A DNA stretch of 64,000 bases from Blastocatellia bacterium (GTDB lineage Bacteria > Acidobacteriota > Blastocatellia > UBA7656), in NCBI GenBank assembly GCA_963832205.1, contig CAWHTK010000003.1, forward strand, positions 54,764 through 118,763, read 5' to 3'. This document shows positions 3,282 to 53,800 of this stretch, piece by piece (within the stretch, counting starts at the first letter, position 1; each line of letters starts with the position of its first letter). The translations under genes and the position numbers were made by a program. The notes beneath the pieces were generated by a model, which worked only from the letters and a program-made list of their open reading frames with translations, was not told the origin of the DNA and did no database searches.

Positions 3282-4544
3282 CTAGAAGTCTCTTGCCACC
3301 TGCGTACCGGAAATCAGGTCGTGCAGACCCCTGCGCTTGTGGTGGATGACGGCGATGAAGAACCCCAGGAGCAGAGGCGCAAAGGCGATGACATAGCCAA
3401 GGCTGCGCAGGATAATCTGTCCGGGAGATGGCTGCTCGAAGGTAAATGCGTTGACGACGCGCGTGTTTGTAAACATCATCCCGAACGTTTTACCGCCGAG
3501 TGATTGCGTCAGGACCAGGTATAGAAAGGCGATCATTACGACCATCGTGCCCGCGGCAAACTGCGTGTGCGGGGCGGAAAAATCGCCGTTCATAAACTCG
3601 ATCACAGCAAGAAACGGTGCGGCGCTCACCGATATGGCGATGAAGTCCGTCAGGTTTAAGATAGCGTGTATAACGATGGAAGGGCTTTCGTTTCGAGCGA
3701 ACTCGGCGTTCAACTCCTTATCAACTTTACGGATTTCGGCCTCAAGGTAATCGCGCGGCTCAATCTCGTCGGGTATAAATCTGGCGGATGCGACATGGTC
3801 TTCCGCTTCAACAAAAGATGTCAACTTTGCCTCCGCCTGAAGCGGGGAAGTCGGTTTATAGGCTTGCGTGGGCTCGACAACCTCGGTCGATTGCCGCGGC
3901 GATTCCAGCAGATCGGCGATGGGGTCAAGCTCGGCCGTGCGACGCGGTGAGAGATCGACTTCGGGCGTCAACTGTCGCGCCGTGGCTTCGCGATCAAGCC
4001 CCAGAGAAGCCGTCGGCCGCTGAGCGGGCCGGACAGGCTCTATCTTTGGAAGCGCGGCGCGGTGGGCATTCTCTGTCGCCCGGCGCACGCGGGTCAGCGC
4101 CTTTTCAACGATGGCATTATTCGTGGCGGGCCGCTGGTGTGACGGCTGTTGTTCCCTGGCAGGCGACTTCGACGCCATTACCTGCGCGGTTTCGCGAGCG
4201 GGTTGAGAATGACGACGGGCTGTCACTTCGCCGCCTTCGCCGTTTAATGCTGTATGCGGTCTTTCCGCGACCGTGGTCCTCAGATCGGCAGCCGGCGCGT
4301 CGTCGGCAGTACCGGGCCCGCTGCGCCGGGCGCGCACTTCACGGACCTTCGCGTTTAGCTCGCGCCGCCAGGCCGGGAGCGTGCTCTCGGCAGGTTCCGG
4401 CTGCTTTACCGTGCGCGGCTTCCTGGGGAATTCAATTAATCGTGATTCTGTCGATCGAAACCTTCTGATATCTGATAAACGATGACACCTGGGACAGCGG
4501 GAAATGGTATCAGGAAAGTCGTGGCCGCACCCCTGACATTTCAT
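3282..4544 (-). CDS. RDD-family membrane protein with N-terminal zinc ribbon and long low-complexity linker
   Basis: CxxC-x10-CxxC at the N-terminus. C-terminal TM helices with GKTFG and RRGLHDLISGT. Confidence 0.85.
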   Translation of the reverse strand: MKCQGCGHDFPDTISRCPRCHRLSDIRRFRSTESRLIEFPRKPRTVKQPEPAESTLPAWRRELNAKVREVRARRSGPGTADDAPAADLRTTVAERPHTALNGEGGEVTARRHSQPARETAQVMASKSPAREQQPSHQRPATNNAIVEKALTRVRRATENAHRAALPKIEPVRPAQRPTASLGLDREATARQLTPEVDLSPRRTAELDPIADLLESPRQSTEVVEPTQAYKPTSPLQAEAKLTSFVEAEDHVASARFIPDEIEPRDYLEAEIRKVDKELNAEFARNESPSIVIHAILNLTDFIAISVSAAPFLAVIEFMNGDFSAPHTQFAAGTMVVMIAFLYLVLTQSLGGKTFGMMFTNTRVVNAFTFEQPSPGQIILRSLGYVIAFAPLLLGFFIAVIHHKRRGLHDLISGTQVARDF

Positions 4545-14269: not shown

Positions 14270-14345
<76 letters not shown>

Positions 14346-14434
14346 AAATTCCCCAATAAACTGCACTCTTTTAGCCATCCGCAAAGGATGGCTTTCCTAT
14401 CTACTTACACCTCAACTTACACCAAGGCCCGCCT

Positions 14435-14686
14435 ATGAACGTCTCGTTAAACCGCGCAACTATCAACGCCTTTGTTGACGCTTTTGGTGAAGACTCCGCG
14501 GACTGGCAGAACCACTACCTCAGAGTCGAGACAGAGAAAATGCGTGTTGCCGGAAAGAGCGTTACCGCACTCTACCTGATCCCTGAAGGCTACGAGAAGA
14601 TGGATGACGAGAACGGTTACGCAATCATCGTTAAAGAGGGAACTGCGGCATCCTCCGGTGAAGAACTAGAAGACACTCAATTCTAA
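14435..14686 (+). CDS. Phage-like hypothetical protein, possibly a fragment of an ssDNA-binding protein
   Basis: LNRATINAFVDAFGEDSADW core and an acidic tail ending in Phe (EELEDTQF). TAATG coupling to the next ORF. Confidence 0.55.
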   Translation: MNVSLNRATINAFVDAFGEDSADWQNHYLRVETEKMRVAGKSVTALYLIPEGYEKMDDENGYAIIVKEGTAASSGEELEDTQF

Positions 14687-15012
14687 TGACCCTCAGAGAA
14701 AAGGTACTACAACTACAAAAGGAGGTAGGCAATGCCAAGACGCTACAGCCCGAGCGTGCGGCTGAAATCCTGGTAGAGCTTACCTCCTTACTGGGAGTAG
14801 TGAACGATGAAATCAGGAAACGAGACGTAGAGTACAACGTCAAACTTCTTGAGTGTTTCGAGAAGGAGGAGAAAGCAAACCGGGCAAAGATACTGGCCAA
14901 GACTTCACCGGAGTATGTAGCCAAACGAGAGGCTAGAGACACACGAGAACTGATGATCGAACTTATAAGGTCGCTTAAATACTTCCTCAAAGCCGAGCGT
15001 TACGATCCCTAG
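14686..15012 (+). CDS. Phage-like helical hypothetical protein
   Basis: 108-aa charged coiled-coil protein, translationally coupled to the upstream ORF. Confidence 0.6.
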   Translation: MTLREKVLQLQKEVGNAKTLQPERAAEILVELTSLLGVVNDEIRKRDVEYNVKLLECFEKEEKANRAKILAKTSPEYVAKREARDTRELMIELIRSLKYFLKAERYDP

Positions 15013-15016
15013 CTTG

Positions 15017-15226
15017 TCACTCCCGGCCCAAACAACCTTCTATGCACGCATCGTAGTTGTTATCGCAAAGCAATGCATGGTGATTATTGCCACCTGCGCT
15101 TCTCAAACATTGAACATATTGCTGCTGGCACGCCTGAGCACAGGATTGAGATTGAGTTGGCGATTCAGCGGCAAACAGGAGCGCACCAGTAAGCAGCATA
15201 AGCAATCCGATTCTTAGACGTTGCAT
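15017..15226 (-). CDS. Small secreted six-cysteine protein
   Basis: RBS aggaggt. Signal peptide MQRLRIGLLMLLTGALLFAA. Mature region CX3CX6C-X13-CX6CX3C. Confidence 0.7.
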   Translation of the reverse strand: MQRLRIGLLMLLTGALLFAAESPTQSQSCAQACQQQYVQCLRSAGGNNHHALLCDNNYDACIEGCLGRE

Positions 15227-15295
15227 ATAATACGTACCTCCTGGCCGCAAATTCTAACACAGCCCAGTCGAGAACCATCTACTAGCTAGACGTAG

Positions 15296-15596
15296 CTATT
15301 CAAATTCGACATATGCGCCCTTTTCAAATCTTAGGTCATCCTTCGCTGCCCCCCTAATTGTATCCTGTAAAAACCTACTAATGTTTGGGCTTAACCTTTT
15401 AGCCAATTCGTCCATAACGGATATGATCTGAAGGTCCTGTGCCAAACTCGGTTCTACAGCAAATTTTGCATATACAGGATCAGGGTCAAGCTTAATGTCA
15501 ATCTTCGGCAGTGAAAGAGGCTCACATTCATTCTCCTACTTTGGCTCGGCGGCGGCTGGTGGCTGGGTCGTTTACCCGACAAAGTTTCACAATCAT
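15296..15596 (-). pseudogene. Frameshifted hypothetical protein (~100 aa)
   Basis: RBS aaaggag then ATG. Protein-like segments in shifting frames (PKIDIKLDPDPVYAKFAVEPSLAQDLQIISVMDELAKK ... RFEKGAYVEFE*). Confidence 0.4.
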
Positions 15597-15785
15597 AATA
15601 TTTCTCCTTTGTAATAATAACCTCATCTATACAGACGCAGTTATGCCGAATAACTTTTGCAGATGTTAAGTGGTTGACATTCCACGAAGGCGAGGAGTGT
15701 CTGGTGATACTGAACTTTTTGAATACAGCAGTTCAGAAACACGTCTCTAACCACCTCTAAAACAGTTGTCCATCCCTCTTTTGCA

Positions 15786-15802
15786 TTGGCACCCTACTTG
15801 CA
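15786..15802 (+). promoter_or_regulatory. sigma54 -24/-12 promoter of the microviridin-type precursor
   Basis: TTGGCAC-CCTAC-TTGCA is a full consensus match, 48 bp upstream of the ATG at 15851. Confidence 0.8.
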
Positions 15803-15850
15803 TATTTATGTTATTGAAATCGCAATGATGCGGTGGATAAGGAGGTTAAT

Positions 15851-16036
15851 ATGAGTACCCAAAATAAAACACCGGACAAGGAGCAGCCATTCTTTGCTAG
15901 ATACCTAGAGGGACAAATGTTCCCTGACGTGAAAACAGGCATCAAAGCCGGTCACACATCCCAAAAATCCTCTGATAATGATGAGGTCCCTACGACCCTG
16001 AAGTTCCCTTCAGATTCTGAGGATGCAGGACGGTAG
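15851..16036 (+). CDS. Microviridin/marinostatin-family (graspetide) RiPP precursor peptide, 61 aa
   Basis: RBS aaggagg. Leader motif PFFARYL (canonical PFFARFL) and C-terminal core TLKFPSDSED (canonical TxKYPSDxEE). Confidence 0.9.
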   Translation: MSTQNKTPDKEQPFFARYLEGQMFPDVKTGIKAGHTSQKSSDNDEVPTTLKFPSDSEDAGR

Positions 16037-16052
16037 CTAACAAAACTTAGAT

Positions 16053-16072
16053 AGGGGGGAGTATTCCCCCCT
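16053..16072 (+). terminator. Hairpin after the precursor gene
   Basis: agggggga-gtat-tcccccct inverted repeat. Confidence 0.5.
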
Positions 16073-16162
16073 TACTCCCTATCACCCTACCACCAATTTG
16101 TCAAAAAGTAATTGACACTACATTAAGAACACATACTATCTTTGCCGCAAGGAGGAAAAATT

Positions 16163-16356
16163 ATGAGAAACGAAAAACGAGCTACCAAATTATACATTAG
16201 ATTCATATGAGGGACAGGAATTTCCTCAAGCTAGTGAAGACAAATGGTAAAGGCCGGAGGGAGCAACAACTCATCATCGACCCCTAGATAATCGAGTGGG
16301 AAGACCCTTGAAGTACTCCGATGTGATGAGGGAATCTACGGTCAAGGATAGGCTGA
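16163..16356 (+). pseudogene. Second, indel-corrupted microviridin-type precursor paralogue
   Basis: RBS aaggagg then ATG. Collinear fragments RF..EGQEFPQ, VKTN, KAGG and LKYSD..DEG in shifting frames. 3' end approximate. Confidence 0.65.
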
Positions 16357-17127
16357 ACATAAAGACTAAAGGGAAGGCGCGGAGGCCGTCAAAATGGCGG
16401 CGCTTCCTAATATCCCTCAATGAATGACGAGCTTATAAGGGAAAAAACTATCCTTCCGATGGATGATGAAGGAGTCTAGGACAGCGCAAAAAGAAAGCCG
16501 ACAACTGAGGTTTCTTTCAGCACGTCATGTGTAAAATACAGGAATTGGAGTGACAGCATTTGCGTGAGCAGATCAGAATAGTAAATATTGGCGATTAGCG
16601 CGACTGAGGTTATCAATATACACAACTAAGGTCTTTTGCCCCAGCACCAGTTTGCTAAAAAGAAAAGGAGAGAAAGTATATGTCTAGAAGAGGTTAAGCA
16701 AGTAAAGGCAAGAATACAGGGAAGGGAGGTGGACACAGCATTGAATGATTCACGATGAAGAGTCACTTCTTGACTATGGAACAAAGACTCAAGAAGTACT
16801 CTACTACTCATTAGCAAGCTGAACATCATTGTGCTAATATGAGCTCAAGAATGGTAGCAGGAAATAATTGACATTGCTGTGAAGCAGATATTATCTTTGC
16901 GCCCTGGAGGTAACAAAATGGATACAGAAAGCAAAAAGCGAAGAAGCCTGATTAAAGAAAAGATTAAGGTTGGGATGCTTTGGGGGAATACACTGCTAAG
17001 TTCAGATGGGTGGCACTTTATACAAGTCTCATGGAGCTTAGAAGAGCGAATCGAAAATTCAGATTTTGCTGCAATTACTGATGAGAGCAGCGAAGATAAA
17101 TGTCTCTGGAGGAGAAGGAGATCAACG

Positions 17128-18441
17128 ATGATTGAGTTACTAACTCAATAATTCAAGAGCTTCACTTGCGAAAGGCCAGAGTGGTCTCTGTTGATAATCA
17201 TTGGGTGTGGGGCGATTCAGGCTGGGTTTTGAGCCCCTCCACCATCTCCTTAGGCGGATTGAGCCTGATCATCGGAACGAATGCCAGTGGAAAGAGCAAC
17301 ATTCGTAGAAGGACTACGATTCATCCAAGGAATTTAGCGAAGCGAGAAAGGCAATTCATTTGCTAGATTTCTTGAAGGCAGGAGTTTCCCAATATAGGAA
17401 AGGAATAGTAAAAGGCGGACTGAGTGCGGTAACTCACAAGTGGCACCTCTGAAACAAGTTAGTATTGTCGTGCGGACCAAACTAGCTAATGAAGAAGGGG
17501 GAGGCAAAGAGAACTACACTATCACTGTAAAAGTGGGAGACAAAGCGCGAGCTCACAAGATCATTTATGAGTAACTTAAACGGACGAGACGAGATAAAGA
17601 ATAATTAAGATGAAAAGACCGCTCGGGCCTGGACAGGTAGATGTGTACATTAGAAGAAAGACTGCGATAAAGACTCTCGGCCCTGCCTTGACCTGACGAA
17701 GAGACCAGCCTGCTATTACACAACTTCAAGATCATCGCGAGTGTTTAGAGGACGTCCGAAAGGACTGCAGGGCCTTTCTCCGTACCATCTCTTCCGTCCG
17801 GTCCTCAATCTCGACCGCGATACGATTGGGCGACCAGCGATACCTGGTCAGACCACCTAGGCGATAAGGACGAGTATCTTCATCAGTGCTCAAACAGTTT
17901 GTGACGATGCTTCGGCATAGGATTTGCTTATCGAATGTATAAGGGAACTGACTCCGCTAGACGTAGCGGACTTGAACGTCCCAGAGGTTAGCTATAGGGC
18001 AGAGCCAACGCAGTTGGTCGAACAGGTCCGACGCGATTATCTGCCTAAAGAGTGAGCGTATGGCACGCACAGGTAAACAGGCTTTTGACGATTCTGTTCT
18101 AGGAACCAACCCTGCTCGATGCTACTTCTTCGGAAGAAATCGAAAACGGGATTCATCACAAGCGCGCAAACCTACTGATGAACATGTGGCAGACGTCACT
18201 GGCAGTGGGGACATACAGATTGTAGGTACCACGCAACCGTCCGCGTTGGTAAAATATCTGGATGAGCAATGCTGAAGGAAGAATCGCTAGCTATCGGCTG
18301 GGCCAGTTAGGTCAGAAAATCCGCACCTTCAGATATTAAGGCTCTATCGCAGATCCAGTTAGGAACTCGTGCTGGTGACCTCTTGGGTTCAGGGTGGTTT
18401 GAAGATGTAGTGGCGTTTCTTGATGCAGAGAATGTGCAATG
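17128..18441 (+). pseudogene. ABC/AAA_21-type ATPase, heavily corrupted
   Basis: RBS aaggag. NFKSF-like start, Walker A IGTNASGKSNI (17271), Walker B FF-EEIENGIH (~18126-18157), H-loop-like QIVGTT. Many indels and stops; 3' end approximate. Confidence 0.75.
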
Positions 18442-19008
18442 AGCTTCAACGTGTTGGTTATTACAGAAGACTTCACGAAGGATGAACAGATTTTTAAGCC
18501 GTTAGCGGAGCATATCTTCAAGATTGAGGTAGAAGTGCAAAGGTACCGGTGTGCAGGAATGAATGCTTACAAGGTAAACAAACAGCGTTGAATATAGGCG
18601 CACTCCGAGAAGTAATAGCACTTTACAGATGGTACACCTTTTTGTTCTCTTTGTGGATAGAGACGGAATAGCCGGGCGTAAGCAGCGGACTGATGAGATC
18701 GAGGAAGCACTCTCTAATGAAGTGAAGCAAGAGCGAGCTTTCGGGCCGAAGTCGCCTGGCAGAAATAGCGGTTTTTATTCTCGCTGGATTGAATTCCCAC
18801 CGATTGGAGATGGAAAGATATACGCGCAGACGACAATGTCAAAGACACTTTCTTCAAGCAACTTGTCAGGATACCGTGGAACGCTAGGCTCCGAATGAGG
18901 GAAGCAGAGAGACTGATGACAATCTAGTTCTAACTGGCAGCGAATTAAGTCGCGTTGTCCTGTAGCGGTATTGACACTTATTTCGAACGATTGAATACGC
19001 TGAATAGT
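18439..19008 (+). pseudogene. TOPRIM-like partner of the ATPase, corrupted
   Basis: MSFNVLVITEDFTKDEQIFKPL (acidic residue after the first strand) and LFVLFVDRDG (DxD). 3' end approximate. Confidence 0.6.
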
Positions 19009-19192
19009 AGGAGAAAGTGCCCTATAGAGGAGCTTATCCAGTAAACAGAATTATGACAGGGTCTGGTGTGTCAAGGGACTGAACCAGGATAACTTAAACG
19101 TGCCCGCGCTAAGAAATTTGGTGGTTCCGCAAAGCTTAACACTTGAGGGAAATAGCTGCACATTGCTAAGATGCATATGCGAAACCAGCTGT

Positions 19193-19234
19193 AAAATCCG
19201 CGTGTCGGCGGTTCGATTCCGTCCCTGGCCACCA
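19193..19234 (+). repeat. attR-like duplication of the tRNA-Phe 3' end
   Basis: aaaatccgcgtgtcggcggttcgattccgtccctggccacca, identical to 14304-14345. Confidence 0.95.
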
Positions 19235-50842: not shown

Positions 50843-53800
50843 ATGTATCAACCTCTTTATGTCCGCCCGATAGCAGTTGACGAGAGAGACGCGCTCGAGC
50901 GCCACCGGTGTTCGGCCAACAAGGAGGAGTCGTGTCGGGCATCGGTCATACTGTTGTCGTCGGAAGGAAAATCCGCGCCCGAGATCAGCAAGCTGCTCGG
51001 CTCTCACCCCTCGAACATAAAAAAATGGATAAGGCGATTCAACACCGAGGGGCTCTCCGGGATAGCGGTAAAGAAGCGCGGGCCGCAGGGAGGTCCGCGG
51101 CCGAAATTTACTATTGAGCAGATAGACTCGATACTGAGCCTTGCCGAGAAGGATCCCGTCCGAGATCGGCTACAGGTTTAAGGAGTGGACGCCGCAAAAG
51201 CTGGCTACGGTGGCGATCGAGCGAGGGATAGTCGAGCGGATAAGTCATGTCACAGTCCGCCAGATACTGAAGCGGCACGAAGCCCTGGGACCGGCCCTGG
51301 GAGCGGGTTTGCGGGCGACGGATGGTCGCGGTGACGCGGGCGGGCCGGCCGCGGGGCCGCGGACGGAACTCAACCTCGGCGAAGCGGCGCTGGCGCAATC
51401 ACACTATGACGTGGCGGTCTCGCACTTCTACGCCGCGCTCGAAGAGAAGTCTCTTTCGGTCGAGGAGGAGGCGAGAGTCAGGGTGCTGCTCAGCAAGGGG
51501 CTCGAAGAGCTGAGCAAGTATGAAGAGGCATACGCGGCCATCTCGCTCTACGAAGACTCGAGGACGGTTGCGCTGCTCGGGCTGCGCTCGCGCGCGAGGG
51601 TGCGGCTGAGGCTCGGCTGGGTCGATTGTTTCCAGGGCAAACACCCGAAGGCCATCGCGTCGTTGAACGAGGCCAAGCGACTATTCCTCGAACTCGGGGA
51701 CGAGCTTGGGATGAGCGAGGCGCACTATGCGCTCGGCCGGACCTACATAGAGCTGAACGAGTTCAGGATCGCGCGCGACCATCTGGTTGCCGCCGTCAAC
51801 GCGCAGAAGACGGTACGCGACCGCGAGCTTCTGGCGCTCGTCTATCAACGGCTCGGCACGGTCGATTTCGGGGAAGGCGCTTTTTCCAGTTCAAAGGAGT
51901 TTTACCTTAAAGCGCTCGAGCTTGCGGAAGGGTCGGCGAACACAAACCTGATAGGCGGCATACTTGTAAACCTCGGAACAATGCTTTTCGGCGGCGCGCT
52001 TTCCGACAAGCAGGAAGCGATCAAGTATCTTCAGCGCGGGATAAGCTCCCTGGAGAAGGGCGGGCACAAGGATTTTCTCGTTCAGGGTTATAACAACCTC
52101 GGCGACACGCTCCGCTATTCCGGGCTCTGGGAAGAAGCGGTCCTGAATTTAAACAAGGCCATCGAGACTGCCCACCAGTTCTCTCTGGCGAACCACGAAG
52201 CGATAGCGAGGACGACGCTCGCCGAGATACTGTGCGCGAGGGGCAGCTACGAAGAGGCCGAGCGGCAGCTATCGACGAGCCTGGACCTGATCGACGGGCA
52301 GGGAGACAAATGGCTCGAGAGCAATATCCTGAGAATACTGGCGACGGTCTATAAAGCAACCGGGCGGATCGATGCGGCCCTCAAGACTCTAAGGCAGACG
52401 CTTCAGCTCTCCACTTCGATAGGCGACCTGTACGGTGTGACTCTGGCAATGGTAGGGCTGGCCGAGGTACACGTATCGCAGGGGGGGCACGACCAGGCGC
52501 GCGAGTACCTGGAGCTTGCGCAAGGGCGGCTCAAGGAGGAGATGTACCTGCCCGTGTCGGGGCTGATCCAGAGACTGGTAGGCCAGCTTGAGGCGGCGCG
52601 CGGGCGGCTCGCGGAAGCGAAGCAGCATATTGCGCAGAGCATATCAATCTTTACGACGACCGATATCCCGTACGATCTGGCGAAGAGCTACTACGAGATG
52701 GGCCTGCTTCTGAGGAAGGCGCGCGACCTGAGCGGGTTCGAGGCGAACCTGATAAAAGCCAAGAAGATATTCGAACAACTCGGCGCGGAGCCCGACCTCG
52801 AGCAGATTCGCAACGCGTTATCCTCTGTGGCGCAGGCCGAGCAGTCGGCGCAGGTGCTAAAGGTCAACCCGCAGAACGACGTGTTGCTCATGCAGAGATT
52901 GATTGAAGCGTCGGCTTCGCGCGAGCTTTTGCTCAGGGAACTTGCGGCGGTAGTCTGCGAGAATTTTCCGGTGGAGCAGGTGGCGATATGCAGGGTTGAG
53001 GACACGGGCAGGGCCGAGCCGCTTGTCGTTCAGGGGATCAACCGGATTGAAGCCGAGAGGCTATGCGCGCGCAACGAGTTCTCAGTAACGGAGAGCGTAA
53101 GCCCCGCGGCGGAAGGCTACACTATCAGGATCGGGGAAGACGCGCGGCACCCGATAATCATCTATGTAAAGACCGAAAGCCTTCCGGACCTTGGGAGGCT
53201 GCAGCCGCTATTAAAACAGGCGGAGCTGGGGCTTGAAACCTGTCAGCTTCGGGCGGCGGCCAGGGGCGGGACGGCGAGAAACGTCGAGCAGCGGATTCAA
53301 ACGATAATGCCCGGGATTTATCGTCGCGAGCCCTTCGATGTTTGACGTCATAGAAAAGATTTACAAGATTCGCACGAGCGACGTGACGGTATTGATCACG
53401 GGCGAATCGGGGACGGGGAAAGAGCTGGTTGCGAGACACATCCACGCGCAATCGGCGAGGGCGAGGGCGATCTTCCTCCCCTTTAATTGCACCGCGACAC
53501 CGAAGGATATAATTGACAGCCAGCTATTCGGGCACCGCCGCGGGTCATTCACGGGAGCAACGGCGAATTATCCCGGCATAATAAAGGCGGCCGAGGGCGG
53601 GACGCTCTTTTCTCGACGAGATTGGCGACCTGTCGCTCGAAGTTCAGCCGAAGCTTATGCGCTTTTTGCAAGAGGGAGAGATACAGCCTATCGGGGAGAC
53701 GAAGCCCTTACGAGTAGACGTGCGGATACTTGCCGCGACGAATACGGACCTGGAGAGGGCGGTCGAGGATGGCCGTTTTCGCGAGGACCTTTTTCACAGG

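Follow-up and report, generated by a model that had tools for sequence, protein, structure and literature searches.

How does a gene for a microviridin-type precursor come to stand in an acidobacterial genome with no maturation enzyme beside it, and is its product matured there? The question is raised by a small gene at positions 15851-16036 of a 64,000-nt stretch of DNA from a Blastocatellia bacterium (the window throughout this text, C3:54764-118763 in assembly coordinates), described in an earlier note, made from the DNA letters, as an orphan, sigma54-driven precursor of a microviridin-type peptide. The assembly comprises 4.27 Mb in 27 contigs, with 72% completeness and 0.5% contamination; genomes of the same family measure 5.5-8.6 Mb. 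Most likely, the precursor cassette was acquired horizontally, depends on ligases acting in trans and is probably not matured in this host. More specifically, we consider the cassette to be ligase-less cargo of the host genome, intact-looking but currently unmatured, on a decaying islet, a reading to which we assign a probability of roughly 55%. The decay of the islet is supported by a deviant first core, three broken or diverged copies of the precursor unit and the lack of a detected integrase.

The precursor peptide and its two cores

The gene encodes a protein of 61 amino acids (aa), here P0001, with the sequence MSTQNKTPDKEQPFFARYLEGQMFPDVKTGIKAGHTSQKSSDNDEVPTTLKFPSDSEDAGR. The frame is open from an ATG at 15851 to a TAG at 16034-16036 (61 codons and the stop), and its parts are given below by window position and strand; G019:C85 denotes the locus of the nearest homologue.

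15839..15845, +, ribosome-binding site AAGGAGG, 5 nt before the ATG; read from the sequence, conserved in G019:C85
15851..16036, +, precursor gene P0001; open reading frame (ORF) listing, profile matches
15887..15907, +, leader recognition box PFFARYL, residues 13-19; columns invariant or at least 90% conserved in alignments A1 and A4
15929..15952, +, linker VKTGIKAG, residues 27-34; conserved among relatives
15956..15985, +, degenerate core 1, TSQKSSDNDE, residues 36-45; alignments A1 and A4
15995..16024, +, canonical core 2, TLKFPSDSED, residues 49-58; fit to the published consensus, aligned columns

P0001 is matched by the Pfam profile PF12559 (Inhibitor_I10; E 1.7e-12, 47.8 bits against a curated cut-off of 21) and by the NCBIfam model NF033738 (microvirid_RiPP, 'microviridin/marinostatin family tricyclic proteinase inhibitor'; 4e-13, 49.9 bits, cut-off 26), which bears out the assignment to the microviridin type made in the earlier note; the four motifs quoted there, PFFARYL, VKTGIKAG, TSQKSSDNDE and TLKFPSDSED, are all present. 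The published motifs, as given in PMC12848669, are a leader alpha-helix PFFxRFx and a core TxKxPSDx(D/E)(D/E) in which rings link positions 1-7, 6-9 and 3-10; the general chemistry is treated in PMC8939145. The PFFARYL leader corresponds to the former motif, and core 2 (T49-D58) matches the latter consensus at each defined position. Judged by its sequence, P0001 is a true member of the microviridin/marinostatin class of graspetides (graspetide group 1), a precursor with two cores.

We compared P0001 with three sets of relatives, namely ten precursors from genomes of the same class (alignment A1), 28 metagenomic homologues (alignment A4, 29 aligned sequences) and 116 distinct precursors taken from named genomes (79 loci). 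The latter loci include Blastocatellia (Acidobacteriota), and one of them encodes a peptide identical to that of genome G019. A single architecture is shared by all three sets: a PFFAR[YF]LEGQ leader box, in many non-cyanobacterial lineages a VKTxxKAG linker, and one to five cores. Against this background, several features that had been taken for oddities turn out to be ordinary. The VKTGIKAG segment, called an atypical internal motif in the earlier note, has VKTxxKAG-like counterparts in 66 of the 116 distinct precursors, and V27, K28, K32 and G34 are each at least 90% conserved among the 29 aligned sequences. The suspected second core does exist as an upstream core-like segment, but there is nothing unusual about its presence: it occupies the normal first core position of the family, at least two strict cores being found in 89 of the 116 precursors. 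Likewise, Phe in place of Tyr and the terminal Asp both lie inside the published consensus; among 238 strict cores, position 4 is Tyr in 179 and Phe in 46, and the endings are D-E (117), E-D (74), D-D (34) and E-E (13). Given these counts and the fit of core 2 to the consensus, nothing in the linker, the Phe or the terminal Asp is out of the ordinary for the family.

Core 1 is a different case. In register, it has T1, S6, D7, D9 and E10, with Gln at the Lys position, the Lys shifted by one and Ser at the Pro position, and so departs from the published core consensus at K3 and P5. Where P0001 has K-S-S-D, none of the 28 homologues in A4 deviates from K-[FY]-P-S-D, and the alignment of the window with G019:C85 (A2) places a 3-nt in-frame gap in the window exactly at the K-F-P codons. 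An error of the kind typical of this assembly was considered as the source of the gap and rejected: the errors in rpoN, discussed below, are single-base insertions, whereas the gap in core 1 comprises 3 nt and preserves the frame. We therefore lean towards a real deletion. Degenerate first cores are found also in ligase-adjacent precursors, one in G019:C122 and one in a planctomycete locus (L042), suggesting that a segment of this kind may be tolerated as no more than a spacer. Members of the marinostatin type are bicyclic, with ester rings only. Core 1 resembles them in retaining the four ester-forming positions (T36, S41, D42 and D44) without a Lys at position 3; since that Lys is missing, core 1 could, by analogy, at most form an ester-only bicycle. 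Unlike the marinostatin type, which is named as such in PMC8939145, core 1 has neither the Pro nor the aromatic residue, and there is no such variant among the 28 homologues.

With the precursors of class-1 microviridin systems (the MdnA/MvdE type, with MvdC/MvdD = MdnB/MdnC ligases), P0001 shares the Pfam and NCBIfam membership, the leader helix motif and, in core 2, the core consensus, and like many class-1 relatives it carries several cores. Unlike these systems, it has no ligase at its locus or in the assembled genome. Its host is an acidobacterium (Blastocatellia); its sigma54-type promoter and degenerate core 1 set it apart from class-1 precursors, as does the VKTxxKAG linker, in contrast to the acidic, GG-containing linker of the cyanobacterial microviridin loci examined.

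A tRNA-Phe islet with an array of precursor cassettes

The precursor gene sits in an islet inserted into a tRNA-Phe gene, as shown by att-like repeats at the borders and by foreign composition. The guanine-plus-cytosine (GC) content drops to 45.8% in the islet, from 55-58% in the flanks and a genome value of 58.7%, and stop-free stretches of at least 150 aa cover 0-29% of the islet compared with 78-100% of the rest of the window. The borders and the body are as follows (a point marks features to which no strand was assigned).

14270..14345, +, tRNA-Phe (GAA), the integration target; ARAGORN, Rfam RF00005, 72 bits
14304..14345,., left copy of a 42-nt direct repeat (3' half of tRNA-Phe), attL-like; repeat search, 100% identity, start-to-start spacing 4889
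14346..19192 (C3:69109-73955),., low-GC islet body, 4,847 bp; GC and ORF content
19193..19234,., right copy of the 42-nt direct repeat, attR-like; repeat search, no tRNA gene here by ARAGORN

The islet is present once only in the assembly. The PF00589 profile, used in the search for an integrase or recombinase, has eight matches genome-wide and none inside the islet; Pfam revealed no convincing family among ten stop-to-stop ORFs of the region 16918-19050, and PHROGs and Pfam searches with the four left-hand ORFs of the islet yielded only phrog_15091 (E 0.029).

Within the islet, P0001 belongs to an array built of self-contained promoter-precursor cassettes, one intact and three decayed. The sigma70-like promoter module of the array, TTGACA-16/18-TAxxxT, is present in three copies, one of them mutated, and aligns closely with the modules preceding bona fide precursors of genomes G019 and G016. 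The remaining components of the islet are listed here from left to right.

14435..15250,., left module: 83-aa ORF (14435-14686, +), 108-aa ORF (14686-15012, +) and 77-aa Cys-rich ORF (15017-15250, -); ORF listing
15668..15704, +, degenerate sigma70-like promoter module with TTGACA at 15674-15679 and a mutated -10 part; alignment A5 with G019 upstream regions, blastn 87-89% identity
16112..16340, +, sigma70-like module (16112-16139) and decayed precursor paralogue 2; repeat family D2, promoter scan, alignment
16868..17151, +, sigma70-like module (16868-16897) and diverged small ORF 3 (16918-17151) with no recognisable leader box; ORF listing, promoter scan, alignment
17338..17452, +, fourth precursor remnant, a FARFLEG-type leader box followed by a linker-like stretch in another frame; repeat family D3, blastn to precursor DNA of G019:C46

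Paralogue 2 starts with an ATG at 16163 and its frame breaks at 16208, with leader-, linker- and core-like remnants following in other frames. In the left module, the Cys-rich ORF has a signal-peptide-like N-terminus and is convergent (tail to tail) with the 108-aa ORF. The same two genes are found together in genome G013 (L192:9736-10320), in low-GC sequence at the end of a contig, with 84% identity between the two 108-aa proteins; G013 has no microviridin precursor. Beyond the right border of the islet, and close to it, a 399-aa pentapeptide-repeat protein is encoded at 19988-21184 (-).

The sigma54-type promoter and the closest homologues

Whether the cassette has been under selection can be judged from its nearest homologue, G019:C85, which comes from a different Blastocatellia genus of the same family, encodes a precursor with 65% aa identity to P0001 and also has no ligase at its locus. 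The G019:C85 precursor is followed, as in the window, by a sigma70-like module and a second precursor, and alignment A2 covers the promoter, the gene and the downstream hairpin region. The regulatory features are these.

15707..15762, +, conserved upstream block; alignment A2 with G019:C85
15786..15804, +, sigma54-type promoter with TGGCAC (-24) and TTGCA (-12), the pattern TGGCAC-N5-TTGCA lying at 15787-15802; pattern scan, conservation
16053..16072, +, 8-bp G/C hairpin after the stop codon, with no U-tail; folding energy -16.3 kcal/mol, z -2.28

The earlier note's claim of a sigma54-type promoter holds for the element itself, a canonical -24/-12 pair conserved in the closest homologue; sigma54-dependent transcription of P0001 is what we infer from it. 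The element has the classical geometry (GG-to-GC spacing of 12), lies 49 nt before the ATG and is the same in G019:C85 apart from one spacer base. TGGCAC-N5-TTGCA occurs once in the window, with 0.02 sites expected, and was present in 2 of 100 shuffles; the genome as a whole contains 13 strict sites, against 0-4 for scrambled or mis-spaced controls. The host has an rpoN gene (C10:21167-22678), whose protein pieces are 79-100% identical to the protein of G001, a genome of the same genus, and PF00158, the profile of enhancer-binding activators, matches 20 stretches of the genome, corresponding to approximately 18 activator genes. No activator gene was found in the islet. Two PF00158 activator genes lie elsewhere in the window, at 53320-53821 (split by a frame break) and 58148-58651, 37-42 kb from the precursor and with no link to it.

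Over the 150 nt upstream, the window and G019:C85 share 109 of 129 aligned positions, compared with 125 of 165 in the coding DNA and about 38% at synonymous sites. The higher conservation of the upstream DNA, together with the retention of the sigma54 element, argues that the regulatory region is functional, and the block at 15707-15762 may be a putative activator-binding region. The ratio of nonsynonymous to synonymous substitution rates (dN/dS) is 0.13 over 52 codons, with dS near saturation. Taken with the upstream conservation, the preserved sigma54 element and the sigma54 machinery of the host, this ratio suggests that the cassette was functional until recently. The hairpin at 16053-16072, which a simple terminator scan did not call and which has a weaker counterpart in G019, is a possible candidate terminator.

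In G019, the precursors are dispersed: the genome has 11 PF12559 matches on seven contigs and a single MvdC/MvdD pair, located on a contig other than C85 (C122:3599-5529), so that this one pair would serve the dispersed cassettes in trans. Ligase-distant precursors are common in both G019 and G016. Across the 79 related loci, ligases are encoded within the fetched flanks of 64 and are missing from 15, 9 of which have flanks of full length (~10 kb). An analogous case of a dispersed precursor family served by one maturase is that of the prochlorosins. In G019, likewise, there are many separate precursor loci, whose cores vary while leaders and promoters are conserved, and a single enzyme pair; the microviridin cassettes differ in peptide class and chemistry and in lying in low-GC tracts beside tRNA genes, and in the assembled genome carrying P0001 the enzyme pair was not found.

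Several further observations on these relatives are worth recording. A promoter module of ~45 nt (TTGACA ... TATCTT ... AGGAGG) is near-identical before several G019 precursors while the peptides differ (loci L026, L027, L028, L029, L030 and L019). A canonical Blastocatellia cluster, L032 (G016:C2:847225-857380), encodes two ATP-binding cassette (ABC) transporters, two two-core precursors, MvdC, MvdD and a PAS hybrid histidine kinase/response regulator. Two more ligase-distant G019 precursors lie downstream of tRNA genes, both in low-GC tracts: in L033, tRNA-Arg (4293-4367) precedes a precursor at ~5000 by 0.6 kb, and in L041, tRNA-Lys (880-953) precedes one at ~4991 by 4 kb. No exact repeats of at least 14 nt of the 3' ends of these tRNA genes were found beside the two orphans. 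These placements are hints, not proof, that residence of precursors beside tRNA genes is a general habit.

Ligases and the fate of the cassette

The earlier note saw no ATP-grasp gene in the 64 kb, and we can confirm this: with profiles and tblastn, no MvdC/MvdD-type ATP-grasp ligase was found in the window, in the islet or in the rest of the 4.27-Mb assembly. The orphan status of the precursor thus extends to the assembly as it stands, which, at 72% completeness, is narrower than the genome. The sole weak match to TIGR04184 (MvdD) and TIGR04185 (MvdC) is C17:89925-90818, which reaches 88.7 bits (cut-off 475) and 82.4 bits (cut-off 425), respectively, and tblastn with the G019 MvdC and MvdD hits the same region only, with 30-34% identity over the C-terminal two thirds. 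This protein scores best on TIGR04187 (155 bits, cut-off 350), and its nearest solved relative is 7drm (8.7e-22), followed by 5ig9 (9e-17), which is MdnC according to PMC12848669. The TIGR04187 score and the precedence of 7drm over 5ig9 place the protein in another group of graspetide-type ligases; the GC content of its gene is host-like. The 297-aa ATP-grasp gene overlaps by 4 nt with a 266-aa ORF that has no family match (C17:89925-91615; L001:1474-3164, -), and no precursor is present nearby in the ORF list of C17:86000-95000; the two genes may constitute an uncharacterised graspetide system.

Among 301 sampled genomes of the class, 13 have a PF12559 match, including the genome carrying P0001, which is the only carrier in the sample without detectable ligases, a quarter of this genome being missing. 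Genome G001, of the same genus and 98% complete, has neither precursor nor ligase.

In the reading that we favour, a sigma54 holoenzyme with an enhancer-binding activator would transcribe P0001 from 15786-15804. By analogy with the family, the PFFARYLEGQ leader helix would dock onto MvdC/MvdD-type ATP-grasp ligases, which would cage core 2 through a T49-D55 ester, an S54-E57 ester and a K51-D58 amide (a presumed topology). Core 1, having lost the Lys and Pro positions, would acquire two ester rings at most, or would serve as a spacer only. Proteolysis would then free the product, which, again by analogy, is predicted to inhibit serine proteases; Leu50, which we take to occupy the specificity position, would favour elastase-like targets. 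The cassette would have reached the host by horizontal transfer, and it is likely to be unmatured cargo because, most probably, no ligases came along.

Several observations weigh against this reading, and some of them also speak for its most serious competitor, that P0001 is fully functional and matured in trans by an MvdC/MvdD operon in the unassembled quarter of the genome. At 72% completeness and 4.27 Mb, against 5.5-8.6 Mb in the family, there is room for a ligase operon in the missing part, and a carrier without ligases would be exceptional because all 12 other precursor-bearing genomes of the class sample encode MvdD (at least 450 bits) with MvdC beside it. No damage is visible in the ORF, the ribosome-binding site, the promoter or core 2, and the two 42-nt repeats have not diverged; this suits a cassette that was acquired recently and may still be of use, rather than a relic. 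The competitor is further favoured by purifying selection on the peptide, by strong conservation of the promoter and by the abundance of ligase-distant precursors in G019 and G016. Moreover, the rpoN region (C10:21100-22750, L004-L007) has ~10 single-base insertions relative to G001. The broken rpoN looks like a local assembly error, not a pseudogene, and such errors may also depress the completeness estimate; with local indel errors in the assembly, part of the apparent decay may itself be an artefact, although contig C3 around the precursor is otherwise well covered by long open frames. An empty insertion site was not seen in G001, where the contig stops 90 nt past tRNA-Phe and the counterpart of the right flank belongs to a separate contig. 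Finally, the link between sigma54 and the precursor is based on two sequences, the P0001 locus and G019:C85, since the element recurs in only one of the 79 related loci, that of G019:C85, and of 77 sites of the exact promoter TTGGCACCCTNCTTGCAT in metagenome contigs none has a precursor within 400 nt downstream; the 58 pattern matches in viral contigs do not include a relative. Nevertheless, we regard full function in trans as possible but doubtful, considering that neither hidden Markov model profiles nor tblastn detected so much as a ligase fragment in 4.27 Mb, that the whole system is missing from the nearly complete G001, and that the gene arrived on a foreign islet without a ligase, where its neighbouring copies and core 1 have decayed.

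Two other explanations appear far less plausible. Maturation of P0001 by the C17 ATP-grasp, despite its membership in another ligase group, would draw on the only ATP-grasp found of the type acting on peptides that the ribosome makes and that are modified after translation (RiPPs), with graspetide ligases as its nearest solved relatives and 155 bits on TIGR04187; that score, however, like those on TIGR04184 and TIGR04185 (90 and 84 bits in this comparison), is far under the curated cut-off, the similarity to Blastocatellia MvdC/MvdD is low and partial, and the gene has host-like GC content and lies on a different contig. As leader sequences track ligase phylogeny, according to PMC8939145, such cross-activity seems very improbable. 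We would be equally surprised if the segment were an assembly artefact in which DNA of another community member had been joined to the contig at the conserved tRNA-Phe. The suspicion might be aroused by the metagenome-type nature of the assembly and its local indel errors, as well as by the deviating GC content and the scarcity of ORFs in the islet, but the contig enters and leaves the islet via two identical 42-nt tRNA halves, a signature of site-specific integration rather than of a chimeric join, after which the sequence is host-like again, and the islet is found only once.

A wider picture would join these observations, although we put it forward tentatively and consider it somewhat less probable even than full function in trans. 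Blastocatellia would hold a mobile library of multi-core microviridin cassettes that multiply within genomes and move between genera on integrase-less, tRNA-adjacent islets; one MvdC/MvdD pair per genome would mature the products in trans, at least one lineage would have been rewired to sigma54, and the window would represent an array that landed in a genus without the system. If so, an enhancer-binding sensor would decide when the inhibitor of the sigma54 cassette is made.

Most of the work on microviridins as scaffolds for protease inhibitors concerns peptides of cyanobacteria. Already known in kind are the peptide family, its multi-core precursors and the location of precursors away from ligases; the acidobacterial host, the compact promoter-precursor cassettes, the placement in a tRNA-Phe islet and the conserved sigma54-type promoter are new. 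Judging from search results alone, our literature search yielded no paper connecting microviridins with sigma54 or with precursors in Acidobacteria, and searches for orphan or island-borne precursors were unproductive. The case of P0001 leaves the picture of how the microviridin family works unchanged. What it adds is that the two-core form of the family with the conserved VKTxxKAG linker is established in soil Acidobacteria, where precursor genes can sit far from ligases as compact cassettes with promoters of their own, and that islets targeted to tRNA genes can carry such cassettes. In genome mining, ligase-first searches miss such precursors, whereas precursor-first searches flag 'clusters' that lack the enzymes. 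The link to sigma54, if confirmed, would provide a simple handle on the signal that switches on production.

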